From positions 652 through 64,651 of the IMG/VR virus record IMGVR_UViG_3300025736_000018: a DNA stretch of 64,000 nucleotides. One strand, written 5' to 3'. How positions within the stretch are numbered: the stretch's first letter is position 1; each line of letters begins with the position of its first letter. Source of the stretch: a virus. The position numbers and the translations under genes are program-made. Below the pieces are notes generated by a model. It saw only the letters and a program-made list of their open reading frames with translations, did no database searches and was not told the DNA's origin. Below are positions 39,118-64,000 of this stretch, piece after piece.

Positions 39118-39209
39118 TTACTATTTTTGCCTTTTCTTTTATATTATCATTGTAGTATAAGAAAGGGCATTATTTTATTATAATTAAAAGAAAGAAGGAA
39201 AATAAATTT
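39118..39209 (+). promoter_or_regulatory. reiterated promoter cassette (degenerate copy)
   Basis: CTTACTATTTTTGCCTTTTCTTTTATATTATCAT ... AAGGAAAATAAATTT-ATG. Confidence 0.4.
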
Positions 39210-41361: not shown

Positions 41362-41367
41362 AATTAA

Positions 41368-42318
41368 ATGAGTTTACCCGACGTACAACAAAACACAACT
41401 GGATTTAAAAAGCTTCCAATAGAGAAAGTTGGAGTGAGAGGAATCAAAGTTCCCTTTCATATATTCCAGAAAGGTAATTCAAAAAGCTTCAGTACAATAG
41501 CAACAATTTCAAGCTACTGTAATCTTGTAGAAGATGTTAAAGGGATAAATATGTCTCGCATTAGCAGAGCAATTAATGAAGTGTTGCAGAGAAATAAAGA
41601 TGGATTTACAAATTTAAATGATTTTGTATATGCGCTTCAAGAGGCTCATGGAGCAACTGATATTTATATTAAGGCAAATTTTGAATATTTATATGATACA
41701 TTATCTCCAATTGAAAAGGTATCGTCAATAGAGCCGGTCAATATTACATTTGAGAGTAAACTAAAAGATGATAAATTATTCAACTACATTACAGTTAAAA
41801 CTACTGAGATGTCATTATGTCCTTGTAGCAAAGAAATGTCATTATTAAAAAATAACCTGACAATGACTGAGAGTTTACTTATACAACATGCTCAATTTCC
41901 TCCGGTATTACTTAATAAAATAAACAATGCTGGCTTTGGAGCACATAATCAAAAATCTACAATTGAGGTTACATTTGAATTTATAGAAGGAAGAACAATG
42001 TGAATCGAAGATATAATGGAAATTATTAGAGAAAATGTATCATCTCCTACATGATCAACTCTTAAAAGAGGAGACGAGAAATATGTAACTGAAAGGTCTT
42101 ATATGGGTGGGTATTATGATGAGAATAAGAAATTTGTAGATACTGGCGGTGGTCCAATGTTTGTAGAAGACATTGTTAGAAATATAGCTTTTGAATTAGA
42201 TAAAGAATTAGATAACAGAATATTAGACTATTCTATTATAGTTAACAATCATGAATCTATTCATTCAGACGATATAATGGCTACTGCAATAATGACAGCA
42301 GGGCGAGAATTAAAATAA
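41368..42318 (+). CDS. folE2: GTP cyclohydrolase I type 2 (FolE2/MptA-like; two in-frame TGA)
   Basis: LPDVQ...IEKVGVRGIKVP, MSLCPCSKEMS, C-terminal HESIHSDDIMATA; the 41368 and 42103 ORFs share one frame. Confidence 0.6.
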
Positions 42319-42400: not shown

Positions 42401-42679
42401 ATGAGAGAAAGAACACAGGTGCAGGATTTTAAAGCAGAAAGAAAGTTAAAATATGTAAGTTCACATGCAAATAAGATTTCAAAAGATGATATGCAGTTGA
42501 TCTATAATGAACATGATATAGAAAAAAAGCGCACAATGGTTATTAAAATCATAAATGACTTCGCATACAAAGGTAAGCAAGCGCTTTTTTTGAAAAAAGT
42601 TAAAAGTACTAATAGTACTATAGGGCTAGATATAATAGCTTCAAATCTATACTTATTCGCTGAAGGACTTTATGTATAA
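42401..42679 (+). CDS. hypothetical protein
   Basis: ATG after the leader. Confidence 0.5.
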   Translation: MRERTQVQDFKAERKLKYVSSHANKISKDDMQLIYNEHDIEKKRTMVIKIINDFAYKGKQALFLKKVKSTNSTIGLDIIASNLYLFAEGLYV

Positions 42680-45600
42680 GGTATATTTAGCAAGACTCGA
42701 AAGAGGTCAACTTCCAGGTTGACCTTATTGTGTATATAAAATAGGTATTACTCAATTTGATAATGCTCTTATACGATTACGATATGCAGGTGCTGATGAG
42801 CCCAATCCTATTATAAAAACATTTCCAATAACTAAAATTATAAAGACAATTACTGTTGAAAATGAAGATCAAGCATTAAAAATTGAAGCAGAGATCATGA
42901 AAAGAACTATTAATTGAGCAAAGGATAAGAGATTTCACAATTGATACGAACCAGATCAAGTATCTGGAATTACTGAAATGCGAAAATGAGATAGAGCAGA
43001 GGTTCGATATGTGACTCACTTAATGAATAATACTCAGTTAATACTCGAGGATAAAGAAGTTATATTTTTTAAAAAGGAACAATTAATAATGAAACAAATA
43101 TTTAACATACATAATCATAGTACATTTTCAATACATGATGGAGTAGGTACTCCAGATCAGTGAGCAAAATATATCAGCGAAAATCCAGAGCAACATGTAC
43201 AAGCAATATCATTATCTGAACACGGTACACTAAACGGAATGATGGAAACTTTTAATGCAGCAAAAAAATATAATTTAAAATATATGCCTTCGGTTGAAAT
43301 ATATCTTGAAGATAAATATAATTTTGATAATCCACGCGAAAATCAAAAAGGTCATCTTGTTTTATTTGGAGTAAACAAGAGAGGTTATGAGCAAATAATT
43401 CAAATTAATAATTTAGCTATTCAACGTGGGCAAATACTTAAAATGAGAAGCGGAAAGCGAGTTACTGTAGTTACATTAGATATATTAGAAGAAGTAATTA
43501 GAGACGAAAGAGGAAACGTAAAATGTTCAGGAGCTTGCGTTGGTGGATATTGGAATCTGCCTATTCTTAAAAATAACGATATTAGAGCTGCTCATGAAAA
43601 TCTCATTAAAATAATGGAAATATTTGGTAAAGAAAATACTTATATTGAATACCAAGTATACTTAGATGATACGGATAAGCAACTTAGAGTAAATTGTGCT
43701 AATAAAATTTTTAAAGAGAAATATGATCTTAAAGCTATTGTAACTTCTGATGCTCATATAATTAAAAAAGACGATGTAAAATATCAAGCGGTTGCTGTAG
43801 CAATGGGTTGGAAAACAACATTGGAGCAATTTCTTAAAGTAGGCCATCTTCATTATTCAGTTTGGTTAAAAAATTCTGATGAGTTTTTTGAAGCATTGGA
43901 AATTAAAGAATTTGGAATAACAGAAGAGGATATGAGTGAAGCAATAAATGAAACGCTTAATATTTTTGATGAATTAGAAGAGATAGAATTATTTCAACCT
44001 CAAGTGTTCACATATCATAATAGTACAGAAGAAGAAAAATTACAAAAGTTTTCTGATCTTGTTTATAGTGGCTGGAATGAAAAAATAGATGGTATTATTC
44101 CAGTGGAAGAGCGTACACAATATATGGAACGTTTAGCTTATGAAACAAAATTATTACGCAAGAAAAATTTTATTGACTATTTTTTAGCTGTAAGTGAAAT
44201 TGTTGAAGAGGGTAGAAAACAAGGAATTGTATTTGGTGTAGGTCGTGGCTCAGCAGCTTCAAGTTTGGTTTCCTATTTGTTAAATATTACTAATCTAGAT
44301 CCAATAAAATATAATTTGATTTTTGAAAGATTTATTAGTGAAGATAGAATTGATTATCCTGATATTGATGTAGATTGCTCAAATAGAGAAGATCTAATAA
44401 ATATTATTCAAAGTCTCTATCCAAATAGTGACGTTACTGTTGTTGCTAATAAAAGTAAGTTAGGTCTCAAAAATTTAATTAATTATATGTTTAAGGTTTT
44501 TAATATTACATATCCAAAGAAAGACTATGTTTCTTCTGGATACTACTTTTCAGATTTAGTTGACAAATATAATCTTGATCAATATGATGTTGATTCGTTT
44601 ATGGAATTAGCTGAAGTAGAAGATTTAGAACAACATTTTAATAATAAATTTCCTAACTATAATCTTCACTATATGTTTAACTTATTAATTAAGAACCTAT
44701 CTAACATAGGTATTCATGCAGGAGGAGTTTGTATTCTTCCTAAGGGACAAAGTATTGTTCCTCTGACACCTGTAGCAAATGATAAATATGCGCATGGCTC
44801 TGGCTATTCTGAATCTGGTAATTACAGAGAGTTAGAATATGTAGGTCAAATTAAATTTGATTTCTTAGGCATTAGAACATTACGTATATTTGAAGATGTA
44901 GGTAAATTATTAAGAGAGAAATATGATGATTGGAATTTAGATAGAGTAAATAAATTATTAGAATTTGAAGGTGTTAATGTTGATGATAATATGGTATATG
45001 ATAGAATTAATACTACACTTACAGACGGATTTTTTCAAATTAGTTCTAGCGGAATGAAACAATTAATATGCGATCTTAAGCCTTCTAATATTGAAGAGCT
45101 TGCCCAATTGATTGCTTTATATCGTCCAGGTCCATTACAAGCTGGAATGAATAAAACTATGAAGGGAGTAAAGAATGGAGAGATAAAAGAAAGATCTCTT
45201 TGGCCTGAAGACTTACTATCTCACTTAGAGCCTATTATTAAGAATACTAGCTATCATATTCTATATCAAGAGCAATTAATGCATATAGGAAAAGCTATAG
45301 GAGATTATAGTATTATTGATTTAAATAATTTCCGTAATTTCTTATCTAAGGGGAATCCAATGAGAGAAAGTAATCCAAAGAAATTTGCTGAATGGCAAAA
45401 GAAATTTTACGATTCTTTCATTGAAAATGGAGCAAAAAAAGGAATTTCAAATAAATCGTTAGAGTTACTATGGGAAAAAATGAAGCAATTCTCAAAATAT
45501 TCATTCGTTAAAGCACATGCTGTTAGTTATGCACATAACGCCTTTATGTGCGCTTACTTATCACAATATTATCCAATAGAATGGTATACTGCAATGCTGC

Positions 45601-46481
45601 GTCATGAAGATCCTATAGAGTTCTTGCCAATTGTTAAAGAGCAAATTGAACAATTAGGATTAGAGATTCAAATTATCCCTCCGCAGATTAATAATATTTA
45701 TCGCGAATCAACTAATATTAATAATAAAGTTATTATTTTAGGTATTAATCAAATTAAAGGAATTGGCGTTAGAGCATCTGAAGAGTTAAACAATATTGCA
45801 AATATTCACTATGACAATTTCCAAGAGTTTCTCACATCAAAAGATTATTCTAAGCGGGTAATTAATAAAGGAATTGTGGAAAAGCTAATTAAAATTGGAT
45901 TCTTTAATACTATAGAGCCTGATCGTGCTAAATTATTAATCAAATATATGAAGTCTATAGTTAAACTTAAGAAAGGTGAGAAGCCTCCTGAAATTAATCG
46001 AAGTAATTTTTTATCTAAACTATATAATTTCAATGCATCAGAAGATTTGTTTTTCTTCAAAGCTGAAATGAGTATGATTGGAACCTCATTAACTTCATTT
46101 CCATATCAAGCTTTAGCTAATCAAGTAGATGCTATGGTACGAGACGATGTAAGAAAATATGCACGTGGTGAAGAAATTTACTTAGAAGTTTTAGCTGGTA
46201 TTGATTCTATTAAAATTAAACAAACTAAAACAAAAAAAGAGTTTCTAAGTCTTAAATTGAGAACTATTAGTGGTAAGTTTATATGGTGTAATTTGTTTGA
46301 TAGCAAAATGAAGCATATTGAAGAGCAATGGCAATTAAATTTAAAGAATGAAGATTATAGTGATACAATATTGATGTTTTACTATACAGAGAGTGGAAGC
46401 TGGAAGAATCTTTTAGATTTGGTACCACTACAAAAATTTATAGAAGTAAAAGAACAGGTAGATAAAAATGGAAAAGATTAA
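42672..46481 (+). CDS. dnaE: DNA polymerase III alpha-like replicase (DnaE/PHP) read contiguously with an N-terminal T5orf172/MUG113 domain; six in-frame TGA, all in the first 165 codons
   Basis: MYKVYLARLERGQLPGW(TGA)PYCVYKIGIT matches the T5orf172 start; no stop before the PHP motif IHNHSTFSIHDGVGTPDQW(TGA)AKY; 1080-aa TGA-free DnaE core from 43239. Confidence 0.6.
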
Positions 46482-51812: not shown

Positions 51813-53321
51813 ATGATTAATGAAGAGGACAAGAACGTAAAGAGTCAAAAAAAATGAGCAATTGGAGATATTAGAAACGGATATCCGGTATTGCCATTAG
51901 AAGAAAGAAAAACAATTCTCTTGCTTAGTGACGATGCTAGAATGCATTCCGGCGTCGGGACTATGTCAAGAGAAATTGTTTTGGGCACCTGTCACTATTT
52001 TAATTGAGTTCAAATAGCTGGAGCAATTAAAAATCCAGATATAGGTAAAATAGTAGAGCTTTCGCAATCAACAGTAGATGCAACTGGCGTACCGGATGCT
52101 CAATTTAAATTATATCCAGTAAACGGATATGGTAATCCAAACGTATTAAGGATGGTATTAGCAAATGAACCTCAAGTTAACGGATTATTACATTTTACAG
52201 ATCCAAGATTCTGAGGTTGGCTATATCAAATGGAAAATGAAATTAGACAATCAATTCCAATAATGTATTGAGCTTTGTGAGACAATCTACCATACCCAAA
52301 ATGAAATAGAGATTTTTATAGAAGTTGTGATTTAATAATGAGTATTTCTAAACAATCAAAAAATATACATGATGTTGTATTAAAAGGTTATGCAAAAAAA
52401 GAAAATATTGAGGTTACATATGTGCCGCATGGCATAAATCCTAATGTTTTCTTTCCTATTGAAAATAAAGAGAATGATGTTGAGTATTCCAATTTTAAAA
52501 ATACAGTTCTAAATAGAGAAGAATATGATTTCATTATTCTTTATAATAATAGAAACCTCGGTAGAAAACGTACAGCTGATATTATGACTGCATTTCAATC
52601 CTTTAGTGAGAAGGTAGGTAATAAGAAAAAGCCTTTGCTACTAATGCGTACAGATATTAGTGATGATGGAGGTACAAATCTTCATGCAGTATATAGAGAC
52701 CTAATGCCCGAGATTAATGTAAAGTTTATACCAAGTAAAATATCACCTAGTCAAATGAACTATTTATATAACATGTCAGATTTAACAATTAATGTCTCTT
52801 CAGCTGAAGGATTTGGATTAGCTTCTGCAGAATCTATAATGGCAGGTACTCCGATATTAGTTAATTGTACCGGTGGGCTTCAAGATCAATTAAGAATGGT
52901 CAATGATGATCATTCACCAGTAGAATTTACAGAAGATTTTCCGAGTAACTCTTGTGGAGTACATAGAATTCATGGTCCATGAGCATTTGTAGTTTGACCT
53001 CAACAAAATCTGATAGGCTCTCCGCCAACTCCATATATCTATGATGATAGAGCAAGCATTAATGATATTACAGAAAAGATGTATGAAGCGTTTAGCTTAT
53101 CTAAAAAGAATATGAATGATAGAGCAGTGAAAGGACGTAAGTGAATATTAAATAATCTATCATCTCCCATTATGTGTGAAAAAATGACGAAAGATATTTC
53201 CAAATGTGTATATAGTTTCAAAGGTAGAAAGCATTTTGATATTTTTAAAATAGAAAGCAATGAGAAAGATGATAATACACTTGCTGGAATATGAGATGAA
53301 ACAATTAAAAAGTGATTATAG
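51813..53321 (+). CDS. glycosyltransferase, GT-B fold (GT4-like), about 11 in-frame TGA
   Basis: 502-aa frame from ATG 51813 to TAG 53319-53321; MNYLYNMSDLTINVSSAEGFGLASAESIMAGTPIL matches the GT4 C-terminal motif. Confidence 0.7.
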
Positions 53322-53331
53322 GTTTTAAAAA

Positions 53332-54981
53332 ATGAACTATAGAAACAATTCAACAAATATAACAAAAGTACTTTATGGGCCTGATTTGACAAAAGAATTA
53401 CAATCAGGAATTGAAAAGCTCGCAACAATAATTGCATCAACACTCGGTCCTAGGGGAAAAAATGTAATTATAAATAATAAGAAGAATAATATCCCTTTCA
53501 TTACAAACGATGGAGCTACCATAGCAAAGAGTATCTGTCTTGATAATGATTATGAAAATGCAGCAGTACAGCTCTTGAAACAAGCAGCATTAAAAACTGA
53601 GTCTGATGCTGGTGATGGAACAAGTACTGCTATTGTTTTGGCTAATGCAATTATAATGAATACAAGAACTGCAATGGAAGAGTATCCAAATCTTAATGTT
53701 AATAAGCTAAAAAGAGATCTTGATTATTGATTAGAAATTGCATTAGGATATATTGACAAGCAATCATTTGAGCTAAAAACAATTGATGAAGTAAGACATA
53801 TAGCTACAATATCAGCAAACAATGATGAGAGTATAGGAAACATTATAGCTGAAGCAATTGAGCTGGTTGGTAATGATGGAATAATTAACGTAGAGGAATC
53901 TCAAACAGGACTTACAGAAGTCATTAAAGTAGTTGGAATGGAAATTAAAAAGCCAATTATATCACCATATTTCATCAACAATCAACAAAAAGGAAATACC
54001 GATTTTAACGAAGAAACATATATATTAATTATAGATGATAAAGTATATCAACTAAGTAAACTATTACCAGCTCTTCAAGCTGCAACTAAAAGTAATAAAC
54101 CTATATTGATTATAGCTGAAAATATTGAAGGCGAAGCTCTTAGTGGACTAGTTGTTAATGCAGTTAAAGGTAACTTAAAAGTTTGTGCAATAGAAGCTCC
54201 TCATTTTGGTGACGAGCGTAGAAAAGCGCTTGAGGATATAGCCAAATTTACAGGTGCAACAATTTTGAGCAGTAAATATGGACCTCACACATTAGATAAT
54301 TTTGAGAATAAATTTCTCGGTGTAGCAAAGAGAGTTACTGCCGGATCGAGCTGTGTTATTCAAGAAGGTAAAGGTACAGGGTTAGAAGCTTATAAAGAAG
54401 GATTAAAACATCAGCTTAAAGATGAAGATAATAAACTTGCACTTAGAGACAAAGAAATATTAAATATTAGATTAGCTAACTTATCAGCAAACGTTGCAGT
54501 ATTAAAAGTTGGAGCTAGTACTGATGCTGAATTAATTGAAAAAAAAATGAGAATTGATGATGCAATTAGAGCTACTAAATGTGCTATAGAAGAGGGAATA
54601 ATTACAGGTGGAGGAATGTCCTTTTATAAAACATCATTAATATTAGGAAGAGAGTGAGATAAAAATTGAAGTGATGAGACAAGTGTCGCTAAAGCAATAT
54701 TGCAGAAATCATTACAAAGTCCACTACAAACAATAATTCAAAATTACGGTGGCGATGAAAATGAAATATTAATTAAGATTTTTAATGAAGATACTCCAAA
54801 CGTAACATTTAATGCTAATGATGGAAAAATAGTCAACGCATTTGAACACGGTATTATTGATCCAGTGAAAGTAGTTAAGAGCGCTTTAACAAATGCAGTA
54901 AGTATTGCAGGAATGATAATTACAACAACTGCAGCAATAATATATGATAAGGAAAAAAATAATGAATACATCAGTTACTAA
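53332..54981 (+). CDS. groL: GroEL-like chaperonin (three in-frame TGA)
   Basis: DAGDGTSTAIVLA, equatorial ATP-site GGG, C-terminus IDPVKVVKSALTNAVSIAGMIITT; the 53332, 53938 and 54700 ORFs share one frame. Confidence 0.8.
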
Positions 54982-56275
54982 GAAAAAAGAAGAAAAAGAG
55001 AAAGACAAAACATTTTGCTTACTTCATGGACCATTTAACACAGTTTCTGGTTACGGAGCACATGCAAGAGATATTGCAAGAGCAATAATTAAAAAATACC
55101 CCGATTGAGATATTAGATTATTTGACTGTCCATGAGGAAACACCCCAAGAAACTATTTAATGAAGTGAAGAGACGATGATTTAATAAATAGATTATTACA
55201 TGACGGGAAATTACCGCGAAAACCAGAAATATATATTCCAGTACTAATACCTCCTGAATTTAATCCAATAGGAAAATTTAATATTGGTATTACAGCCGGG
55301 ATAGAGACGACATTATGTCATCATTCATGATTAGAAGGTATAAATAGAATGAATTTAAATATTGTACCATCTAAGCATGCTAAAGACGTATTTGAAAAGT
55401 CTAATTACAGCAAGAGAAACAAAGGTAATAATGAAGTCATCGGACAATTAAAATCTGAAAAGTCTATTGAAGTTTTATTTGAAGGTGTAGATACGGAAAT
55501 GTTTCATAAAACGGATATGATTTCTAAAGAGGTCGCTGATTGTATGGATCAAGTTGAAGAGTCATTTGCATTCTTATTTGTAGGGCATTGATTAGACGGA
55601 GCATTTACTCATGATAGAAAAGATATTGGTGGATTAATAGAAACGTTTATCAATACATTTAAAAACAAACAAGTAAAGCCAGCATTAGTCCTAAAGACTA
55701 GTGGTGCGACATTTTCAATTATTGATAGAGAAAATATAATGGAAAAGATAAAGCAAATAAGGCATGATGATACTATGCCAAATATATATCTTATTCATGG
55801 TGATATGTCAGACAAGGATATTAATGGACTATACAATCATCCAAAAATTAAAGCTATGATATCATTAACGCACGGAGAGGGATATGGAAGACCATTAGCT
55901 GAATTTGCCGCTTGTGGTAAGCCAATTATTGCAACAAACTGATCTGGACATATAGATTTTCTTCATCCTAATTATTCAGTATTAATAAGTGGTGAATTAA
56001 GAAATGTACATAAGTCTGCAGCTAGAGAAGGTATGATACTTGAAAATAGTCAATGATTTTATGCAAACTATGCGAAAGTAAAAGAAGCATTATTAGATGT
56101 ATATAAGAATTATGGAAAACACAAAAAGAAAGCTGTCAAGCAAGCTGATATAATTAATAAGCATTATACATTGGATGCTATGGCAGATAAGCTATTTGAA
56201 ATATTTGAAAAGTATCTACCTGTATTTCCAAAAGAAATTCAATTAGCATTACCAAAATTAAAGAAGGTCGAGTAA
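54962..56275 (+). CDS. glycosyltransferase, GT-B fold (six in-frame TGA)
   Basis: SLTHGEGYGRPLAEFAACGKPIIATNW(TGA)SGHIDFL matches the GT1/GT4 nucleotide-sugar motif; start overlaps the GroEL end. Confidence 0.65.
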
Positions 56276-56881
56276 ATGAAAAAAGAAGAAGAGAAGACTA
56301 GTAGAAGTCTTAGTGATTTAAATAGTAAAATAATTAAAGTAGTTGAACCAAATGTAATATTTTTTTATGCTGAACGTTTAGACTATGAAAGTTCATTAGA
56401 GCTTAATGCAGCTATATGTGAGGTAACAAATTATGTTGAAAAGACAAACAAAACACAAACAAATCTAGAAAATTATACTGACCACATTGACTTACATATT
56501 TTTTGTCCAGGTGGACTAGTCTCTGCTGCATTTAGTAGCGCAAATATAATTAAAAGTAACTCGATAAATATTCATACATATATTGACGGATATGCAGCAT
56601 CTGGTGGAACAATAATTAGTATGGCTGGACATAAGAGATATATGTATAAAAAATCAGTTGCGCTAATTCATGAACCTTTTGGTGGGTTCATTGGAAAAGC
56701 TTCTGATTTTGCAATTGAAAAAGAAAATGCTGATTTAGAATTTGCTAGAGTATTAAATTATTACTCAGAAATTATGGATATTTCGAAAGATGCCATTTCT
56801 GAATTATTGAAAGAGGAGAGATTATTAAACGCAACACTTTGTCTCAAGTATGGAATTGTTGATAAAGTATTACAAAATTAA
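56276..56881 (+). CDS. ClpP-like serine protease (S14 family), candidate prohead protease
   Basis: FCPGGLVSAA (oxyanion loop), GYAASGG (Ser), ALIHEP (His). Confidence 0.7.
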   Translation: MKKEEEKTSRSLSDLNSKIIKVVEPNVIFFYAERLDYESSLELNAAICEVTNYVEKTNKTQTNLENYTDHIDLHIFCPGGLVSAAFSSANIIKSNSINIHTYIDGYAASGGTIISMAGHKRYMYKKSVALIHEPFGGFIGKASDFAIEKENADLEFARVLNYYSEIMDISKDAISELLKEERLLNATLCLKYGIVDKVLQN

Positions 56882-56903
56882 AAAAAGAGAATTAAAAAAG
56901 AAA

Positions 56904-57617
56904 ATGCAAAAACAACAGACGAAAGAGCAGTTAGAGAAAATATTTAAAGACAGAAAGTTCAACGTAGAAATTAAAGAATTTGAATCATCAGCAGAGGACG
57001 GTCTCAAATTTGTAGAAAAACGAGATGATATTGAGGATAGCTCAAAAGATATCCAGCTCGATGAATTATATGAAAATGAAGATGTGACTCCAGCAAACAT
57101 TCAAGCACAGCTTGATAACTATGAAGAAATGGAAGAGTTTCCTTCAACAGTAAAAAGAATTCAATGTCCGAGATGTAGTTCAATGAACTGTTTCGAAGAA
57201 GAATTCCCAGAATTATCAGATGGAACAAAAATGAATGGATATTTATGTAAGAATTGCGGTTATGTTTCCAATAGTGAATTTAAACACGACAGTATTTATT
57301 ACACAAATGCAATTAATAGACTTCCTACTATGGTAAAGAATCTAGAATTCTATGATGAAAAAAGAGAAATCTATTGGTTTCTTGCAATAGTGCAAACCGA
57401 CAATGGTTATGTATTTCCAGAACCTGATGAAAAAGATTGACATTGAACATATTGACCAACTATATTTATTCCGGAAGAAGAAAAAGAAAACTATCCAATA
57501 AAAGTGGACGGAGAAACTATAGGCTATTACGAACATAGATATGATATCGATAAAGCTCAACAATTTGATAAGACAGACTTCTATAAAGCACTTAGAGCTG
57601 TTGGACTAGAAGAGTAA
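56904..57617 (+). CDS. acidic Zn-ribbon protein, possible scaffold (three in-frame TGA)
   Basis: CPRCSS...CKNCG; sits after the ClpP-like protease. Confidence 0.4.
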
Positions 57618-57626
57618 AATTAAACT

Positions 57627-58133
57627 ATGTCATCAAATTTTGCAAAGAAAAAAAAGAAGAAGAAAACCAGTACTAAAGATTTTTCTAGACAACATGAAAA
57701 AAATATTGAAAAGAAAATAAAAACTACACTTGGTAAGCTAACTCCTGGTATGATTGCAAGATTTAATTATAGGGGTAAGGATGTACATGAGCCTCGCCCC
57801 TTAGTACTTATTTTAAATCCAAGATGAAAGAATCATTGTCATGCGATTGCATTACGTGTGCTAACTGAAGCAGAATTAATGCAATTAGCTAAAATGGTTA
57901 AACTTAGTGTTGGACAAAAAATAGCAAAAAAAGTTAAATTCTTACGATTAGGAACAAAGGCAGATATTGGAAACCCAGAAAGATTTTACAAACAAAAAAT
58001 AAAGCCTTATATGAGAAGAATAGATGAAAACGCATATCGTACATATAATACTCGCGGAATATCTAATGTTAATATTATTGATTATAGGTTTAAAGATATG
58101 GATCTAAGAACTTCAAAAAAGATTAAGAAATAA
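57627..58133 (+). CDS. basic hypothetical protein (one in-frame TGA)
   Basis: the 57627 and 57858 ORFs are in frame across one TGA. Confidence 0.45.
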
Positions 58134-58161
58134 ATTACTATTTTTAAAGGAAAGCTTATAT

Positions 58162-58402
58162 TATGATTAATACAATAGAAAAAATGGGGATCTTTTTAAC
58201 CAAGAAAAGATTTGTTAAAGCAACACAGCTTGATGAAATGGAAGAGATTATTGATAAAAACGGTGAGAAGTTTGTAGGCTTGCCAGGCGATTGAAAAATA
58301 ATTGATGAAAGCGGATACATATACTTCATAAGTAAATGAAAATTTAAAGAGTTGTATCAACCATATAATGATGCTGCATTTGATATGTATATAAAGTTAT
58401 AA
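58162..58402 (+). CDS. small protein with apparent +1 frameshift at AAAAAC-C-GGT (58255-58262)
   Basis: frame 0 MINTIEKMGIF...IIDKN then frame +1 GEKFVGLPGDW(TGA)KIIDESGYIYFISKW(TGA)KF...MYIKL*. Confidence 0.35.
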
Positions 58403-58414
58403 AAAGAGAATTAA

Positions 58415-58613
58415 ATGAAATTAATATGTGAGATCAAAGCAGTAAGTGATGCTTATAGAACAAGAGAAGAGTGTGGCTGAAGAGCAGGCAACGTGCAGAT
58501 TGGCGATGAGATAAGTAAAGTCATTGAAATATCAGATTCTGTAGTACGAGATACTCTACTTGTTGAATCTATAAAAAAAGAATTAATAGAGTTTATACAA
58601 AATTTAAATTAAA
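58415..58613 (+). CDS. small protein with apparent +1 frameshift at CTT-T-GTT (58559-58565)
   Basis: MKLICEIKAVSD...RDTLL then frame +1 VESIKKELIEFIQNLN*. Confidence 0.35.
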
Positions 58614-58631
58614 AAGAAGGAAGAAAAGAAG

Positions 58632-58847
58632 ATGAGAGTAAAATTTAATTATGAAGTTAACGAAATATTTCATGAAATTGAAATTGAAGCATGTAAAATT
58701 GAAGAAATAAAAAGCTTATTAGGTATTGTAATGTCTATAATTAATAATGAGTCAATGAAAGAAGTTCATATAGATCCGCTAGAAGACGAAGACGAAGGCG
58801 AAGGTGCTGCAGTTGATGAATTACCAACGACAGTGAAATGGAGATAA
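58632..58847 (+). CDS. hypothetical acidic protein
   Basis: 71-aa ORF. Confidence 0.45.
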   Translation: MRVKFNYEVNEIFHEIEIEACKIEEIKSLLGIVMSIINNESMKEVHIDPLEDEDEGEGAAVDELPTTVKWR

Positions 58848-58852
58848 ATAAA

Positions 58853-59170
58853 ATGAAAGTAGAAATTGAAGCTGATGATTATAATGCATTTAGAATCGCT
58901 TTGGAAGCTGCTGTAGAATTGATTAAGACAAAAAATCTTAAAAATACAGAAACGCATATACATTATCATTATAGCTATACATTTCCTAATTTTTGAGATA
59001 AGCCTGGTATCCCATTCTGGAGAGAATCCTTGTGGAATCCAGATTATCTAGATCAAATAACGTCAATATCTTGTGATGGAAGTGATTCAACTTATACATT
59101 TTCATCAACTTCAGATGAGCCAACTCATATTGATGGCATCAACTTTGACGGACCAATGAGTATATTTTAA
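58853..59170 (+). CDS. hypothetical protein (three in-frame TGA)
   Basis: 105 aa continuous: ...TFPNFW(TGA)DKPGIPFW(TGA)RESLW(TGA)NPDYL. Confidence 0.4.
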
Positions 59171-59192
59171 TAAAAAAGCTTAGGAGGAGTTT

Positions 59193-59858
59193 ATGATAAG
59201 TATTAGCTACGCGATTACCGTTTGTAACGAAGCTGAACAATTAGCTGAATTACTTGATAAGCTATTAGAAAAAATTGATATAAATGATGAGATAGTTATT
59301 CTTCATGATGAAGAAAATACAACACAAGAAGTTATAGAAGTTTGTAGAAATTATCAATATCAGTTTGGCAAGGGAATGGTACAAGGATTTTCACACAAGT
59401 TAAATAATGATTTTGCAGCACACAAAAATTTTCTAAATCAATGTTGCACGAAAGACTTCATCTTTCAAATAGACGCTGATGAAACTCCTAATTGTGCTTT
59501 ACTTAATAGTATTAAAGGAATAATTAATGAAAACCCCACTGTAGAGTTATATTATATACCTCGCATAAATACTGTTAGTAATATTACAGATGATCATATT
59601 AAGAAGTGGGGATGGAAAGTAAATGAGTACGGGTGGATAAATTTTCCAGATCATCAGAGTAGAATATATAAAAGAGATAATGAAAGAATATTTTGGGTAA
59701 ATCCAGTACATGAACGAATAATAGGTCACGAGCAGTTTGCACTACTTCCAGGACAACCGGAATATTGTCTATATCATAGAAAAGATATAAAGAAGCAAGA
59801 AGATCAAAACAAGTTTTATAATCAAATAATGAAAGGGCGTATAACGTTTACAAGGTAG
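59193..59858 (+). CDS. glycosyltransferase family 2 (GT-A fold)
   Basis: N-terminus ISISYAITVCNEAEQL and the DxD motif FQIDADE. Confidence 0.65.
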   Translation: MISISYAITVCNEAEQLAELLDKLLEKIDINDEIVILHDEENTTQEVIEVCRNYQYQFGKGMVQGFSHKLNNDFAAHKNFLNQCCTKDFIFQIDADETPNCALLNSIKGIINENPTVELYYIPRINTVSNITDDHIKKWGWKVNEYGWINFPDHQSRIYKRDNERIFWVNPVHERIIGHEQFALLPGQPEYCLYHRKDIKKQEDQNKFYNQIMKGRITFTR

Positions 59859-59864
59859 AGATAA

Positions 59865-61163
59865 GTGAAGAGAAAAGAAGCAATAGAACAATTTGTAAGT
59901 AACTTTAAAGAAATATATGGAATTAATAATTTTTGCCATAACGACAAAGACCCAAAGAAGGTATACTACTCAGGCCCTGTATTTGGAGAAGAAGAAACAG
60001 TTGCAATGATTGAAAGTATTCTGACTAGTAAATGACTTTCTGCTGGAGCTGCAGTAAATCAATTTGAGCATATGTTAGCTAAAAAGTATAATCAGAAATA
60101 CTCAATTATGTTAAATTCTGGAAGCTCAGCAAATCTGGTATTAATTAACGCATTAAAAATACTTTTTAAATGAGATAATAATAGCGAAATAATTCTATCA
60201 GTTGTGGGATTTCCAACTACATTAGCTCCAATAATTCAAAATAATCTTAAGCCAGTTTTTATTGATATTGAAATGGACACTCTTAATTTTGACATATCAC
60301 TTATTGAAAAAAAGATAAACAAAAATACAAAAGCAATAGTTATATCACCAGTTCTCGGTAATCCTCCAAACATGGATGAAATAACAAAAATAGCAACAGA
60401 ATATAATCTACATATTATATTAGACAACTGCGATTCGTTAGGTAGTAGATGAGACGATAAATATTTATCAGATTATGCAATTGCTAGTTCATATTCATTT
60501 TATCCAGCTCATCATATTACAACAGGAGAAGGTGGAGCAATAACAACAAACAATCAAGAACTAATTAAAATAGCAAGAAGTCTAATTAATTGAGGTAGAG
60601 CTTGTACATGCATTGGTGAAGAAAATTTAGGTAAAGACGGTTCGTGTGGTAAAAGGTTTTCAAAATGACTAGATGGATACGATAAAATAGTTGACCATCG
60701 TTATGTGTTTTCTAATATTGGATATAATCTTAAGCCGCTCAATTTGCAAGGAGCGATAGGTATTGAGCAACTCAAAAAGGTTGATGATTTTTTTATAAAG
60801 AGAAGAATTGCGAAATTTATAATAGGAAGATTATTTACTGATAATATTTATGGAGTGAGAATACCTGAAGAGAACAGAGAAGCGTACATAAGTTGGTTTG
60901 GTACTCCTGTTATATGTGATAATAATGAAATAAAAACTAAGTTAGTTCAACATTTAGAAAATAATGACATTCAAACGAGAAATTATTTTGCTGGAAACAT
61001 ATTAATACATCCAGGATTTAAACATCTAGGAAATTATAATGATTATCCAATAGCAAATGAAGTGCTAGATAGGGTATTTTTTGTTGGTGCAAGTCCTCAA
61101 TATGACAGCAACACTTTTCAGCATATTAAAAGAGTATTGAAGGCGTTTAAAAATGGTAATTAA
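59865..61163 (+). CDS. DegT/DnrJ/EryC1-family PLP enzyme, ColD/E1-like sugar 3-dehydratase (five in-frame TGA; GTG start)
   Basis: YYSGPVFGEEE...SKW(TGA)LSAG...NSGSSANLVLINAL; PLP-Lys position is His in SFYPAHHITTGEGG, as in ColD (SFYYSHH). Confidence 0.65.
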
Positions 61164-61239
61164 AGCAATATGTCACTACATGCCTTGAGATTTAGATTTA
61201 GCAATACTTAATGTTAATACAATAAAAAAATCAAGCTAT

Positions 61240-62055
61240 ATGCTACAAGATGGTGATAAGCTAATTGTAGCACTTACATTAAATTTATCAAGTTATATAG
61301 TTGATTGGTATAAATCTGAAATTTCTATAGATCTTTTAAAAGACAAGTTTCAAAGATTGTCACATATTATTGGAAATACTTCAAAAATAAGCTATCAGCT
61401 AAAAGTATTTTTAGGAGATGCTCTTTACGGACATCTTGACTCTCAAAGAGAGTCAATAAAAGAAGATAACGTTGATGGTTATATTCAATATTGCCCAGAT
61501 ATATATTTCAGTGAAACACTAATTCCTTTATATTTTCAAGCTGCCAAAATGATTAAAGAAAAATATTTCGTTGTTGCAGCACAGACTCCTAAACTATGAG
61601 ACAACACATGAGACGTACTACTTAATAGTAGATATAAAGATATGAATTTTAAAAATATGCAATATCAAAATATTAATATATATGATATTAATAATGATAT
61701 ATCACAGAATCAAAATTGAGGAAGACTTATACTTTTGCCAACAATTAAGTTTGCTGGATGAATGGATTATTACAGTAAAGGCTTTGCAGAACAATTATTT
61801 CCTGTACCTGATGATTGACACGGATATGGCTCTTGAGACTTATATTGTATAATACTTGGTAATGATCTAATACGTAAAGGATTTCCGCTTAAACAATATG
61901 TTATAGAAAATCAAATAATTTCACAACGATATTTATTTGATGGAGAGAACGTACATAATAATACACTAACAATGCCGTATCGAGAATTAATTTGTAGAAA
62001 GAATATTCCTGATCAAAGAGAAGTATTTGAATCAACATTACAACAAAAACTTAAT
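61240..62055 (+). CDS. hypothetical protein (six in-frame TGA)
   Basis: 271-aa continuous frame checked codon by codon; stop TAA 62053-62055. Confidence 0.45.
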
Positions 62056-62078
62056 GAGTGAAAAGCTTATGCAATAAA

Positions 62079-63074
62079 AGAAGGATTATAAAAAAAATGA
62101 AAGAAAGAAAACGTAAAAGAATATTAATCACTGGTGGATCTGGAATGGTTGGTCAATATATGAAAGATGAAGCAGAGCGTTGAGGTTATGATGTTTTTAA
62201 TAAAGTAAAATACTTATCAAGTGTTGATTGTGATTTACAAAGTACAACACAAACACGAGCTTGCTTCAAAATATTTAAACCTGATATAGTAATACATTTA
62301 GCAGCTAAAGTAGGCGGAATTATTACAAACTCACTAGAACCTGTGGAGTTTTATGAAGAGAACACATGTATTAATATAAACGTTGTTAAGATGTGTCATG
62401 AATATAATGCTAAATTAATAGCAATGGGTAGTACATGCTCATATCCAGATAAAGTTGATAAGTATCCAATGACAGAAGAGGATATATTTAATGGACCTCC
62501 TACTTGAGATCATTTTGCATATGCAATGTCAAAGAGAGGATTAATTACTCATATTGAATCATATAACAAAGAGTATAATAAAAATTGATGTTATATTATA
62601 CCATGTAATATATATGGAAAATATGATAAATATGATCAATATAATGGACACTTTTTATCATCTTTTATAAAAAGAATTACAACATTAGTAGAAACTACAA
62701 CATCAATAGAGTTATTTGGTACTGGAGAACCTTTAAGACAACACATATATGCCGGAGATGTAGCAAAAATATTATGGATTATGATTAATCGTAATATTAC
62801 AGAAAGTTTTAATGTTTGTCCAGATGAAAATTTAAACATTAATCACATTGCTGAAACAACACTGCAAAGTTGTTTAAGAGAAGATTTAAAAATTGTACAT
62901 AACCCTACAAAACTTGACGGTCAGTATAGAAAAGATGTATCAAATACTAAAATGAAGAATATTTTTGAAGATAAATGTATATCATTTGATTTTACTCCAC
63001 TAAGCGCTGGTATACGTCTTGTATATGATTATTTAATAGAGCAGCAAGAGTCTTTAGAATTAGGTAGTTGGTAA
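62079..63074 (+). CDS. GDP-L-fucose synthase-like epimerase/reductase (Fcl/ColC-like; four in-frame TGA); start unresolved
   Basis: ILITGGSGMVGQ, HLAAKVGGI, GSTCSYP, YAMSKR; no in-frame ATG/GTG/TTG between the stop at 62076 and the conserved N-terminus. Confidence 0.6.
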
Positions 63075-63080
63075 AAAATA

Positions 63081-63302
63081 ATGAATAAGGAAATAGCTAT
63101 GAAATACGGAGATTTAATTAGATTAAGAGAAGAGTTTATGGAAGAATCATGTTATGAAAGTTTTAGAGATCACACATTTGTTTTTATGGGTGAAATGAAT
63201 CAAATGCCAGGTCATTGTATTTTAATTCAGATACACACGGGGAAAGTACACGTAGGTTATCATACAGATAGCTTTAGACTATTAACAGATGATGAAGTAT
63301 AA
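63081..63302 (+). CDS. hypothetical protein
   Basis: 73-aa ORF. Confidence 0.4.
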
Positions 63303-63303
63303 A

Positions 63304-64000
63304 ATGGAAAAACACGATAAAATTAGCAAGGTAATGATTACTACAGAAGATGGTTTAAAATTTGACTTGGCTGATGCTGCACGAAGGTTTCCGGAAATTA
63401 TACGTGATGAAATTGATAGAGAAATATTAGAAAAGCTTCGTAAATCAGCACCAAAATTTCCAAAAGAGATGAAAGTAGCACTAATCACAGGTATATCAGG
63501 TCAGGATGGAAGCTATTTAGCAGAGCTATTACTTGAAAAAGATTACGAAGTGTGAGGTACTCTTAAAAGAAATTCAGTAGCTGAAAACCAATCTAGTAGA
63601 ATTAATCATATTAGATCACAACTACATTTAGAGTATGCTGATATGACAGATATGGCGTCGCTAATACGAGTTTTATCTATGTGTAAGCCAGATGAGGTAT
63701 ATAACTTAGCAGCTCAATCGCATGTACAGATATCATTTAATCAACCAATATATACAACTAATACTATTGTAATGGGAATAATTAATTTGCTTGAAGCAGT
63801 TAAATTAATATGTCCAGAAGCTAGAATATATCAAGCATCTTCTTCAGAAATGTTTGGCAATAGTATTGATGAAGACGGATATCAAAGAGAAACAACGCCA
63901 ATGCATCCTGTGAGTCCGTATGGTTGTGCTAAACTATTTGCGCATAAATTATGTCAAACATATAGAGCATCATATAATATGTATATCAGTTGTGGAATAT
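63304..64000 (+). CDS. gmd: GDP-mannose 4,6-dehydratase (Gmd), 3'-truncated by the window edge; alternative start ATG 63469
   Basis: [28 protein letters not shown](TGA)-[34 protein letters not shown]. Confidence 0.8.

Follow-up and report, generated by a model that had tools for sequence, protein, structure and literature searches.

A glycan-synthesis island with a conserved glycosyltransferase core and a predicted dideoxysugar cassette in a large, TGA-recoded aquatic phage

Introduction

The characterised sugar 3-dehydrases complete their reaction in different ways: E1 and SpnQ take electrons through an iron-sulfur cluster, E1 from E3 and SpnQ from general ferredoxin/flavodoxin systems, whereas in ColD, an enzyme of guanosine diphosphate (GDP)-L-colitose synthesis, the intermediate is hydrolysed and the pyridoxamine 5'-phosphate (PMP) is regenerated with glutamate (PMC8987622). 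In a related pathway YerE puts an acetyl branch on the C4 ketone of CDP-3,6-dideoxy-4-keto-glucose (CDP, cytidine diphosphate), and YerF reduces the product to yersiniose A (PMC9306805, PMC12247030). Among phages, the cyanophage S-SCSM1 carries genes for GDP-mannose 4,6-dehydratase (GMD), Fcl and fucosyltransferases (PMC9602691); glycosylation of mycobacteriophage capsids and tail tubes has been published (Freeman 2023, as cited in PMC12619734); and four glycosyltransferase (GT) orthogroups are common to at least 80% of the large Flavobacteriia phages, which use PolB (PMC12619734). Here we describe a block of glycan genes, approximately 17 kb long, which begins at position 51813 of a 64,000-nucleotide stretch of viral DNA (positions 652 to 64,651 of IMG/VR record IMGVR_UViG_3300025736_000018, hereafter the window) and continues past its end.

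The chlorovirus PBCV-1 encodes GMD, a GDP-4-keto-6-deoxymannose epimerase/reductase (GMER) and cytoplasmic glycosyltransferases, and mimivirus bears fibril glycans. To our knowledge, colitose-type and branched dideoxyhexose sugars have not been reported for any virus. We find that the block is one variant of an island that is widespread among environmental phages, and that its sugar genes are consistent with a pathway from GDP-mannose to 3,6-dideoxyhexoses, as a prior inspection of the window without database searches (the sequence-only reading) had proposed from a GMD-type dehydratase, a 3-dehydratase with His for Lys and an Fcl-family enzyme.

Materials and Methods

Gene boundaries are those on identical public JGI contigs. 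The part of the island beyond the window was read from two contigs (L010 and L018) that are 99.9% identical to the window over the overlap, and its coordinates are given as window equivalents. Relatives were collected with a GT-B2 profile, which found a homologue encoded on at least 538 IMG/VR viral contigs; gene content was compared among the 80 best loci. The dehydrase alignment held 62 sequences, including the 59 closest homologues, and the ColC, ColD, Fcl and Gmd references were drawn from the O-antigen and colanic-acid loci of E. coli O55:H7.

Results

A conserved glycosyltransferase core with a variable cassette

The genes named by the sequence-only reading all lie on one (+) strand, at or within approximately 18 nt of the positions it gave (Table 1). 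Three of them form a core. GT-B1 matches the Pfam models Glycos_transf_1 and GT4-conflict (E 5e-9 to 8e-10) and PHROG phrog_2170 (E 1e-21), and its product is 39% identical to gp89 of Immutovirus and 40% identical to the homologue in Microcystis phage Mel-JY01. GT-B2 matches Glycos_transf_1 (E 1e-6) and, over its full length, phrog_2170 (glycosyltransferase; E 6e-24), with 44% identity to Immutovirus gp90, and the GT2 enzyme matches Glycos_transf_2 (E 2e-9), with 40% identity to gp92. No transmembrane segment was found in GT-B1, GT2 or any other island protein. The 255-aa protein x255, previously read as a putative scaffold, has no Pfam or PHROG match; its residues 106-251 are 27% identical to Immutovirus gp91, which is located between the GT-B2 and GT2 orthologues, and with its C-terminal half thus conserved inside the core of relatives, we count x255 itself as a core component.

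Table 1. Genes of the glycan island and its immediate surroundings, in window coordinates (window equivalents beyond position 64000)
Feature	Position	Strand	Remarks
GT-B glycosyltransferase 1 (GT-B1), GT4-like	51813..53321	+	502 aa, 11 TGA codons; first gene of the conserved core
GroEL-like chaperonin	53332..54981	+	549 aa; Pfam Cpn60_TCP1 E 6e-60
GT-B glycosyltransferase 2 (GT-B2)	54962..56275	+	437 aa; second core gene
ClpP-family serine protease	56276..56881	+	201 aa; Pfam CLP_protease E 2.5e-23
255-aa protein (x255)	56850..57617	+	acidic N-terminal half, Cys4 zinc-ribbon-like motif
Five small open reading frames (ORFs), function not assigned	57627..59170	+	168, 79, 65, 71 and 105 aa; gene calls on identical JGI contigs
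GT2 (GT-A) glycosyltransferase, soluble	59193..59858	+	221 aa; third core gene
Predicted E1/SpnQ-type PMP- and [2Fe-2S]-dependent nucleotide diphosphate (NDP)-4-keto-6-deoxyhexose 3-dehydrase	59865..61163	+	432 aa, GTG start
Predicted GT-A-fold glycosyltransferase, previously unannotated	61153..62091	+	312 aa, 8 TGA codons; 11-nt overlap with the end of the dehydrase gene
Putative ColC-like GDP-4-keto-(3,)6-deoxyhexose epimerase/reductase	62097..63074	+	325 aa; Pfam Epimerase E 1e-45
67-aa ORF, function not assigned	63099..63302	+	gene call on identical contigs; no family match
GDP-mannose 4,6-dehydratase (GMD), N-terminal 232 codons	63304..64000	+	runs off the window
GT10-like fucosyltransferase-family gene	64424-65248	+	Pfam Glyco_transf_10 E 9e-8
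Putative YerE-like three-domain thiamine diphosphate (ThDP) enzyme	65229-67043	+	604 aa
Putative YerF-like short-chain dehydrogenase/reductase (SDR)	67047-67937	+	296 aa; starts 4 nt after the ThDP enzyme gene
GT2-like gene	67927-69105	+	392 aa
ThyX, followed by small ORFs		opposite	after the GT2-like gene
Baseplate wedge genes	from ~75433		after the small ORFs

GT-B1 has a match in all 80 related loci, the upstream exonuclease in 77, GT2 in 71 and an x255-like protein in 35, and the order exonuclease, GT-B1, GT-B2, (x255), GT2 is held among them at 40-50% identity. Downstream of GT2 the genes vary: a His-type DegT gene occurs in 28 of the 80 loci, GMD in 21, the GT10 gene in 14, the Fcl-like gene in 13, the 392-aa GT2-like gene in nine, the ThDP enzyme and the predicted GT-A enzyme in five each, and the YerF-like SDR in two. 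Since the core is syntenic in every one of the 80 loci and the downstream genes vary, we regard the locus as one cassette variant of a widespread island, in which a conserved core is followed by variable sugar genes; O-antigen loci are built in a similar manner, and the arrangement implies that a glycan made by the phage is under diversifying selection. The 168-aa ORF between x255 and GT2 had no relative in any of the 80 loci, a comparison that the four smaller ORFs stood outside, and the products of 168, 79 and 105 aa, which were the three of these five scanned, had no family match.

The same core order is found in cultured phages of two different host phyla, Flavobacterium and Microcystis, the Mel-JY01 order being nuclease, GT-B, GT-B, GT-A. 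Of cultured phages, the Flavobacterium phages vB_FspM_immuto (160 kb) are the nearest relatives; the studied phage is 45% identical to them in DpdA, 38% in a deoxynucleoside monophosphate (dNMP)-kinase-like protein, 35% in the exonuclease and 38% in GroEL.

An E1-type 3-dehydrase

The first enzyme of the cassette belongs to the DegT_DnrJ_EryC1 family (Pfam, E 8.5e-75) and contains SFYPAHHITTGEGG, in which the second His falls in one alignment column with E1 His220 and the active-site His of ColD. The Lys-to-His replacement reported from the sequence alone was therefore upheld when an alignment was run to look for a retained Lys; as a control, the DegT gene at the equivalent place in a related Flavobacterium phage does retain it (SLQAIKHITS). 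Both His220 and the [2Fe-2S] ligands C193, C251, C253 and C261 of E1 are kept in the phage enzyme and in 59 of 59 homologues, whereas ColD lacks three of the four cysteines, and in a PDB search the phage enzyme matched E1/RfbH (3bcx) at E 7e-72 against E 7e-53 for ColD (2gms). It is 34% identical to E. coli O55 ColD, and its cysteine spacing is CxC-x11-C, versus CxC-x7-C in E1. Judged by these residues the dehydrase is of E1/SpnQ type and not of ColD type, such that the DegT fold, the His for Lys and the E1 half of the former 'ColD/E1-like' label are retained and the ColD half is dropped. The identical protein is encoded on 12 contigs.

The ColC-like enzyme and GMD

The Fcl-family enzyme finds GDP-L-fucose synthase as its best NCBIfam model and human GDP-fucose synthase in the PDB (E 2e-49). 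Its Ser, Cys (STC), Tyr and Lys (YxxxK) are retained and His179 is replaced by Tyr, in a loop that reads GKYDKY in the phage, GKYDKF in ColC and GPHDNF in both E. coli Fcl and human GDP-fucose synthase. The 14-residue active-site stretch IIPCNIYGKYDKYD matches IIPCNLYGKYDKFD of E. coli O55 ColC, with two differences only, and not VMPTNLYGPHDNFH of Fcl; over the whole protein, identity to ColC is 29% and to Fcl 27%. The reductase was thus correctly recognised as Fcl- or colitose-synthase-like, except that 62079, its supposed beginning, is not a start codon and the first ATG lies at 62097. Fcl-like genes that accompany a His-type 3-dehydratase have Asn in place of the canonical His in the huge phage LR756502 and five related loci of IMG/VR, and a sixth related locus (L069) shows the same motif, with no dehydratase within the fetched flank. 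In this small sample, loss of the His is consistent with enzymes that act on a 3-deoxy substrate, and the ColC-like enzyme may catalyse C5 epimerisation and C4 reduction of GDP-4-keto-3,6-dideoxymannose. In LR756502 (L003; 642 kb, unannotated), the region 433198-458382 holds a ColD-type dehydratase (HH, no CxC) right after a gene 47% identical to Fcl, as well as, separately, an E1-type dehydrase with 52% identity to that of the studied phage.

The GMD gene that begins within the window encodes, at full length, 378 aa with an N-terminal extension of approximately 56 aa, and ends at ~64440. The full protein covers positions 1-332 of 332 of Pfam GDP_Man_Dehyd (PF16363, E 5e-109), which bears out its original identification; it scores 358.3 bits with the GMD model TIGR01472, compared with 110 for the deoxythymidine diphosphate (dTDP)-type and 91 for the CDP-type model, and is 44% identical to E. 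coli Gmd. The genes for the dehydrase, the GT-A enzyme, the ColC-like enzyme, the 67-aa ORF and GMD are contiguous, much as ColD associates with GMD and ColC-type genes.

Glycosyltransferases and a sugar-branching pair beyond the annotated genes

All three glycosyltransferases of the sequence-only reading, the GT2 and two GT-B enzymes, were confirmed by Pfam. The count itself was too low, as a fourth overlaps the end of the dehydrase gene and two more lie past the window end. The fourth has no Pfam, PHROG or NCBIfam match, and its 42 homologues are all unannotated. An AlphaFold2 model built from the homologue alignment has a mean pLDDT (predicted local distance difference test) of 90.9, and nearly all of the top 50 Foldseek matches in the PDB are GT-A-fold glycosyltransferases (E ~2e-6, TM ~0.4), including chlorovirus hyaluronan synthase, LARGE1, collagen galactosyltransferase, mimivirus R699 and GalNAc-T2. 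On the strength of the predicted fold we propose that it is a new GT-A family; its homologues recur beside YerE-like ThDP enzymes. An E3-like reductase, as might be supposed from the overlap with the dehydrase gene and the AscD-like length, was ruled out by the GT-A fold and the lack of an Fe-S or flavin domain.

The island runs approximately 5 kb past the window, its genes packed in operon-like fashion with overlaps of 11-20 nt or gaps of 4 nt. The GT10-like protein matches the Helicobacter pylori alpha-1,3-fucosyltransferase FucT (2nzw) at E 6e-10, with FNIAIENTSHEGYFTEKILDCFLLKSIPIYWG aligned to FNLCFENTQGYGYVTEKIIDAYFSHTIPIYWG, and the C-terminal GDP-fucose-binding motif of GT10, FNxxxENT...GYxTEK...IPIYWG, is present. 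The ThDP enzyme that follows has 8rph as its best solved relative (379 bits, E 3e-112, residues 3-598 of 604 aligned), which is JanthE, a YerE-like ketone-accepting carboligase (PMC12188165, PMC12247030). It carries the GDG...NN ThDP motif, and all NCBIfam models for acetohydroxyacid synthase (AHAS) fall below their cutoffs. The next PDB match, 5ahk, which we take to be PpYerE, scores 278 bits, and AHAS structures score at most 218 bits (plant AHAS, E 1e-63). A bacterial O-antigen-type cluster holds a 51%-identical ThDP enzyme gene together with an E1-like DegT gene, and the SDR directly after that ThDP enzyme gene is the best match of the phage SDR (31%, E 2e-28); the ThDP-SDR pairing is also seen in the contigs L029 and L068. 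Among isolated phages, only AHAS-like matches to the ThDP enzyme were found, at no more than 33% identity and with several in records that look like host DNA. By these likenesses, the two genes appear to be the first YerE/YerF-type sugar-branching pair in a virus.

Two phage-like contigs have still richer rare-sugar islands. L028 (IMG 3300072551) encodes, besides a YerE-like ThDP enzyme, two aldolases of the HpcH/HpaI kind that recall the erwiniose pathway, along with a 4Fe-4S protein, E1_dh/Transket_pyr subunits, a radical-SAM enzyme and FkbM methyltransferases; L029 (Logan ERR6862845) has its own YerE-like ThDP-SDR pair, a DegT gene, epimerases and a methyltransferase.

One GDP-based pathway or two

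No 4,6-dehydratase other than the GMD-type enzyme was found in the 64-kb window and approximately 14 kb downstream, and no nucleotidyltransferase is encoded in the island and flanks examined. Contig L028 joins a 67%-identical GMD to a ColD-type dehydratase (HH, no CxC), a YerE-like ThDP enzyme and a homologue of the new GT-A enzyme, and in at least six related viral loci a 65%-identical GMD gene goes together with an E1-type dehydrase. For these reasons, and as ColC-like and GT10-like proteins are GDP-L-sugar enzymes, we favour a single GDP-based pathway which, once the 3-hydroxyl is gone, would fork into one arm for colitose and another for branched sugars.

Several points weigh against this assignment. 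The scores lie under the family cutoffs for the dehydrase (RfbH, its best NCBIfam model, 364.5 bits of 423), for the Fcl-family enzyme (165 of 500) and for GMD (TIGR01472, equivalog cutoff 415). The ColC signature is based on a single ColC reference, and the related phage genes carry Asn, not Tyr, at the His179 position. As the dehydrase keeps all four E1 cysteines it would need an electron donor; no E3, ferredoxin or flavodoxin was present in the gene calls and Pfam assignments of identical contigs across ~14-64 kb of the window and ~14 kb downstream, from which we infer an SpnQ-like reliance on host reductases. A Fer2 or FAD/NAD-binding reductase, a cytidylyltransferase and a CDP-type dehydratase were likewise not seen over that range, with the first ~14 kb represented by its largest ORFs; the dehydrase is thus like E1 and SpnQ in type without being a canonical member of the E1 pathway. 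Characterised Fe-S 3-dehydrases take CDP- or dTDP-sugars, and ColD, the only characterised GDP-specific one, lacks the cluster (PMC8987622); use of GDP by an Fe-S dehydrase would therefore be new. More broadly, the substrates are all assigned from sequence families.

It is also conceivable, if doubtful, that the island holds two unconnected pathways: GMD and the Fcl-like enzyme would make GDP-L-fucose for the GT10-like transferase, and the E1-type and YerE/YerF-like enzymes would act on host CDP- or dTDP-4-keto-6-deoxyglucose, with neither a GDP-3,6-dideoxy sugar nor colitose being formed. GMD and Fcl are complete by themselves, as is known from cyanophage S-SCSM1 (PMC9602691), the dehydrase is nearest to CDP-specific E1, the characterised YerE works on a CDP-sugar (PMC9306805), and the bacterial cluster with the 51%-identical ThDP enzyme has a second NTP_transferase and a 4,6-dehydratase taken to be of CDP type. 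However, neither a cytidylyl- or thymidylyltransferase nor a second 4,6-dehydratase was found in the island or the ~78 kb examined, the Fcl-like enzyme lacks the canonical His and has the ColC motif, and both L028 and the six or more loci with 65%-identical GMD genes join GMD to a 3-dehydratase. The two-pathway alternative keeps what weight it has because the characterised Fe-S dehydrases use CDP- and dTDP-sugars.

A TGA-recoded phage genome

Read with translation table 11, the interval from 51.8 to 64 kb falls apart into short ORFs; with TGA as a sense codon, coverage of the + strand by ORFs in the last 12 kb rises from ~0.54-0.67 to 0.84-1.0. The 16 genes of 51813-64000 contain 46 in-frame TGA and 13 TGG codons, as opposed to none and 45 in 11 annotated early genes (RNA ligase, a nicotinate phosphoribosyltransferase (NAPRTase)-like protein, NadE, RtcB and CCA-adding enzyme among them), in which TGA is never a stop either. 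When three proteins were compared with homologues, 13 of the 17 TGA positions tested fell in columns that are at least 90% Trp, and TGA is accordingly read as Trp, in agreement with the heavy TGA recoding claimed at the outset; Gly (code 25) was ruled out by the same columns. Partial stop-codon recoding is a known phage pattern (PMC11210395, PMC9523058). Some ORFs in the first 24 kb are longer without a TAG stop, but no convincing read-through genes emerged and TAG was taken as a stop.

Across positions 1-64000, TGA use falls into three classes, namely early genes that avoid it as both stop and sense codon, partly recoded middle genes, and an almost fully recoded glycan island. The middle class includes genes for a radical-SAM protein (20676), ThyX (22624), Band_7 (31296), a dUTPase-like protein (37862), QueC (38372), GCHY-1 (41368), DnaE (42672; 5 TGA, 12 TGG) and the exonuclease (46468). 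The gradation looks like a translational timing signal, and TGA use in the island is similar to that in the downstream baseplate genes. A scan of the window and of five flanking loci (L009, L018, L019, L025, L026) turned up no suppressor tRNA(UCA). The phage tRNA-Trp(CCA) at 9846-9920 appears, as read off the sequence, to have a U11:A24 pair in its D stem; this presumably matches the state of the classical Hirsh UGA-suppressor tRNA-Trp, a speculative parallel. A tRNA with anticodon CTA (4378-4452; labelled 'Pyl' by ARAGORN) would read TAG, which is an ordinary stop in the window, so that the tRNA has some other role unless genes with recoded TAG are present in another part of the genome.

The dehydrase, the ThDP enzyme and the GT-A enzyme have identical counterparts encoded on many contigs from JGI, ENA and Logan, of which the longest measures at least 176 kb. 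The GC content of the window is 30%, its GC skew is positive all along and nearly all its genes are on the + strand. The source is a large uncultivated aquatic phage of at least 176 kb, recoded from TGA to Trp and distantly related to Flavobacterium Immutovirus. That the genes might instead be a bacterial polysaccharide cluster, from a code-4 organism or a chimeric assembly, is barely credible. Many of them do have bacterial homologues, and no UCA suppressor tRNA was found; yet the same arrangement recurs on those many independent contigs, the genes are flanked by those for phage RNA ligase, RtcB, DnaE and DpdA to one side and for the baseplate wedge to the other, the locus is syntenic with cultured Immutovirus, and the early genes avoid TGA as stop and sense codon, unlike those of a code-4 cell.

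The GroEL- and ClpP-like genes

A GroEL-like chaperonin and a ClpP-like protease are present between the core genes, as first described, and Pfam confirms both families (Table 1). The chaperonin is 37-40% identical to phage GroELs; it has a match in 22 of the 80 related loci, each time upstream of the exonuclease gene, which is also its place in Immutovirus. The protease matches best the NCBIfam model 'head maturation protease, ClpP-related' (89.6 bits, short of the cutoff of 120) and a PHROG head maturation protease (E 3e-31), and its identity to any phage record is at most 34%, or 28-32% where most of the protein aligns. The family scores lean towards a prohead protease without reaching the cutoff, and it may serve as one; it has no portal or capsid neighbour and no homologue in any of the 80 loci, and by this comparison is an insertion specific to the studied phage. 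We regard the interleaving as a local rearrangement and both genes as passengers here, outside the pathway. The nearest clear structural genes are those of the baseplate wedge, approximately 6.3 kb beyond the island, and given the position of GroEL in relatives, the isolation of ClpP and this distance, the idea that the glycan genes stand beside morphogenesis genes is weak.

Other genes of the window

The window also encodes RNA ligase, RtcB, CCA-adding enzyme, NAD salvage enzymes, a DnaE-type polymerase, a PD-(D/E)XK exonuclease, QueC, QueD, QueE and DpdA, along with ten tRNAs and one tmRNA. An array at ~1.6-12.7 kb holds tRNAs for Arg, Thr, Ser (two), Ile (two), Trp and Val, and a phage-encoded tmRNA at 9083-9456 with the predicted tag ANNLQLAA. 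The RNA-repair set (6086-7252, 24493-25695 and 32764-34251) of RNA ligase (phrog_968), RtcB and CCA-adding tRNA nucleotidyltransferase would be consistent with a response to host tRNA-cleaving defences. A set for NAD+ salvage and synthesis (16754-20479) comprises an isochorismatase-like gene, possibly a nicotinamidase, a NAPRTase-family gene (18102-19286) and NadE (19631-20479). The DnaE-type polymerase III alpha subunit (42672-46481; 1269 aa) has an N-terminal extension of ~130 aa with no assignment, and its gene had no DNA-level match in the phage collection; the replicative polymerase differs among relatives with the GT core, being PolA in Immutovirus and PolB in Mel-JY01.

A 7-deazaguanine DNA-modification module (36683-42318) comprises QueD (PTPS), QueE (radical SAM), QueC, a DpdA-like transglycosylase (39210-40010; 45% identical to that of Immutovirus and 43% to that of Campylobacter CP220-type phages), a dNMP-kinase-like protein and a GCHY-1-type GTP cyclohydrolase. 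ThyX (Thy1) is encoded twice, each time with TGA codons: at 22624-23277 (+) and at ~69102-69800 on the minus strand (L018 13874-14572). The second copy directly adjoins the glycan island at its end and is the sole gene seen on that strand.

Discussion

The best explanation that we can offer, tentatively and with a little less than an even chance in our judgement, is that the locus combines the GT core of a glycan-synthesis island with a variable sugar cassette, that the cassette specifies a branching GDP-based pathway, and that the glycan is placed on an acceptor intrinsic to the phage. In this scheme, GMD would turn host GDP-mannose into GDP-4-keto-6-deoxy-D-mannose, the family being assigned by sequence and the substrate by extension. 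The E1-type PMP/[2Fe-2S] dehydrase, with its His and four Cys in place, might then remove the 3-hydroxyl, presumably with specificity for GDP and with electrons from a host ferredoxin or flavodoxin, as for SpnQ. The resulting GDP-4-keto-3,6-dideoxyhexose would be the branch point, from which the ColC-like enzyme may yield GDP-L-colitose; alternatively, the YerE-like ThDP enzyme may add a two-carbon (or longer) acyl branch at C4, for reduction by the YerF-like SDR to a yersiniose-like branched 3,6-dideoxyhexose. Six soluble glycosyltransferases (the two GT-B, GT2, new GT-A, GT10-like and GT2-like enzymes) would build the oligosaccharide in the cytoplasm. The least certain step is the last, where the acceptor would be phage-intrinsic, most likely virion proteins modified late in infection.

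A phage-intrinsic acceptor is favoured since the island proteins are soluble, export and ligation genes are absent, TGA use resembles that of structural genes and virion glycosylation has precedents; that the core is kept at 40-50% identity across host phyla while the cassette varies points in the same direction. Virion proteins are marginally favoured over host envelope or DNA, and even they are a possible acceptor rather than a probable one. Four observations count against the proposal. Capsid, portal or tail-tube genes are not adjacent to the island; the GT core of relatives sits in a replication and nucleotide-metabolism module, which would fit DNA or host targets equally; a conserved acceptor could equally be a universal host lipid intermediate such as undecaprenyl diphosphate (Und-PP)-GlcNAc; and YerE-like enzymes and the closest ThDP enzyme homologues belong to bacterial lipopolysaccharide (LPS) clusters (PMC12247030).

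The last two of these bring in remodelling of the host envelope, which we consider rather unlikely as the function, though a serious contender. Here, the soluble enzymes would act on host lipid-linked intermediates (Und-PP-sugar or inner-leaflet LPS core), and host flippases and ligases would export the products, changing the cell surface, for example to stop superinfection or the sticking of progeny to debris. The analogous cyanophage islands are usually read in this way (PMC9602691, PMC12801897); enzymes of the GT2, GT4, GT10 and YerE-like kinds are characteristic of clusters for LPS and O-antigen (PMC12247030), and the closest ThDP enzyme homologues lie in bacterial O-antigen-type clusters that include Wzy. 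As peripheral O-unit glycosyltransferases normally have no transmembrane helices, the lack of such helices leaves envelope remodelling open, and a universal lipid-linked acceptor could also account for the conservation of the core. On the other hand, no initiating transferase, flippase (Wzx), polymerase (Wzy), ligase (WaaL) or Gtr component is among the island gene calls, no lysogeny genes were seen in the window, phages of Flavobacterium and Microcystis, two hosts with different envelopes, keep the GT core at 40-50% identity, and in its heavy TGA recoding the island resembles late structural genes. Nor do the genes point to O-antigen conversion of the prophage kind, as the gene calls hold no GtrA/GtrB/GtrC and no Wzx/Wzy/acetyltransferase, and no integrase was seen in the surveyed ORFs.

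Hypermodification of DNA is a distinctly improbable alternative. The glycosyltransferases would put an oligosaccharide on a modified phage base as protection from host nucleases, and modification-dependent restriction would have driven the variation of the cassette in an arms race. Glycans of up to three sugars on phage DNA are made with several GT-B enzymes and phage NDP-sugar enzymes (PMC13326640; bioRxiv 10.1101/2023.12.21.572611), the conserved core always follows the PD-(D/E)XK nuclease in the replication and nucleotide-metabolism module, and the phage has DpdA with QueC, QueD and QueE, a dNMP-kinase-like gene and two ThyX genes. However, a ThyA-type hydroxymethylase or hydroxylase, TET/5mYOX and a cytosine methyltransferase were not found in the ~78 kb examined, Mel-JY01 has the GT core but not the DpdA subtype, and six glycosyltransferases with colitose-type and branched dideoxy sugars would be without precedent on DNA. 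A specific tie between the GT core and 7-deazaguanine modification, by analogy with glycosylated queuosine, was considered and rejected: the DpdA subtype, common to the studied phage, Immutovirus and the Campylobacter CP220-like phages, is absent from Mel-JY01, LR756508 and RM378, all of which have GT-B1 relatives.

The fullest form of our proposal is that a GDP-sugar pathway forks in a way unknown in cells, with an Fe-S E1-type dehydrase acting on GDP-4-keto-6-deoxymannose, a colitose and a branched arm, and a virion glycan as the end point; taken whole, we think this unlikely. If true, it would constitute a third combination of cofactor and nucleotide, alongside ColD and E1/SpnQ, and its branched arm would yield a sugar without any earlier description, a 4-C-branched 3,6-dideoxyhexose that is manno-derived and GDP-linked. 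The sugars would cap a glycan put together on virion proteins by the GT core that hundreds of aquatic phages have in common, with the swappable cassette as a phage 'serotype' locus. Large aquatic phages spend 10-20 kb on glycan genes, and this locus gives concrete, testable enzymology. As cultured Immutovirus phages have the core, the choice between virion, envelope and DNA can be answered at the bench; were it the virion, capsid or tail glycosylation would be widespread among environmental phages and not a mycobacteriophage curiosity.

The sequence-only reading had called such a virus-encoded pathway essentially undescribed for phages, which is wrong in view of GMD and Fcl in S-SCSM1 (PMC9602691), mycobacteriophage glycosylation as cited in PMC12619734, and the cyanophages S-B05, S-B43, S-H68 and RN05-S, each of which has a 47%-identical E1-like gene within a ~17-kb glycosyltransferase island. 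Because hundreds of related phage contigs hold a similar block, the locus is an interesting variant and not a first. Already known, in the literature and in GenBank, are phage GMD, Fcl and E1-like genes with many glycosyltransferases (PMC9602691). New are the chemistry that combines a GMD-type dehydratase, an Fe-S dehydrase, a ColC-like enzyme and an apparent YerE/YerF-type pair, the GT-A family, and the architecture of conserved core and variable cassette with a cultured relative for experiments.

Comparison with known systems

A close cellular counterpart is the pathway to GDP-L-colitose (Gmd, ColD, ColC) in E. coli O55/O111 and Yersinia pseudotuberculosis, with which the phage shares a GMD-type dehydratase, a His-for-Lys 3-dehydratase, an Fcl-family enzyme with GKYDK[FY] and a fucosyltransferase-family GT nearby. 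It differs in that the phage dehydratase has the E1/SpnQ [2Fe-2S] motif absent from ColD, that ManB, ManC, Wzx and Wzy are not encoded, and that the genes are TGA-recoded and in a viral context. The CDP-3,6-dideoxyhexose/yersiniose A pathway (E1/AscC-RfbH, E3/AscD, YerE, YerF) has in common with the phage an E1-type dehydrase (His220 and Cys193/251/253/261) and a JanthE-like ThDP enzyme followed directly by an SDR, as in yerE-yerF and erwE-erwF (PMC9306805); in contrast, the phage 4,6-dehydratase is GMD-type, there is neither a cytidylyltransferase nor E3, the cysteine spacing is CxC-x11-C, and the RfbH score is below cutoff.

Among viruses, the 'cell wall/LPS' islands of T4-like cyanophages (S-SCSM1, S-SCSM2R and P-SSM2; S-B05, S-B43, S-H68 and RN05-S), which are likewise lytic aquatic myoviruses, also cluster NDP-sugar enzymes, either GMD with Fcl or a 47%-identical E1-like dehydrase, with many small soluble glycosyltransferases (PMC9602691, PMC12801897). 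They lack the GT-B1/GT-B2/GT2 core and the YerE-like enzyme (at most 33% identity in the collection), and are not recoded. Phage DNA glycan clusters (RB69, DLP3, RL38JI and the metagenomic 5-hydroxymethylcytosine glycosyltransferases) also set several GT-B and NDP-sugar enzymes in a nucleotide-metabolism module and make variable glycans (PMC13326640), whereas in the studied phage no base-activating enzyme (ThyA homologue, TET) was found and the sugar chemistry is far more elaborate. With virus-encoded virion glycosylation in chlorovirus, mimivirus and mycobacteriophage, the phage shares NDP-sugar enzymes and soluble glycosyltransferases that are independent of host export machinery, although a glycan on its own virion is a prediction, and it has no capsid gene adjacent.

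A close likeness also exists to Immutovirus and the IMG/VR contigs with a GT-B2 relative, at least 538 in number, in which the exonuclease, GT-B1 (39%), GT-B2 (44%), a homologue of the C-terminal half of x255 (27%), GT2 (40%) and a DegT-family gene stand in the same order; DpdA, the dNMP-kinase-like gene and GroEL are common to Immutovirus and the studied phage as well. The Immutovirus DegT protein retains the catalytic Lys of an aminotransferase, and its cassette looks like an amino-sugar pathway, whereas the studied phage has GroEL and ClpP between its core genes and, downstream of them, a cassette of GMD, E1-type, ColC-like and YerE/YerF-like genes.

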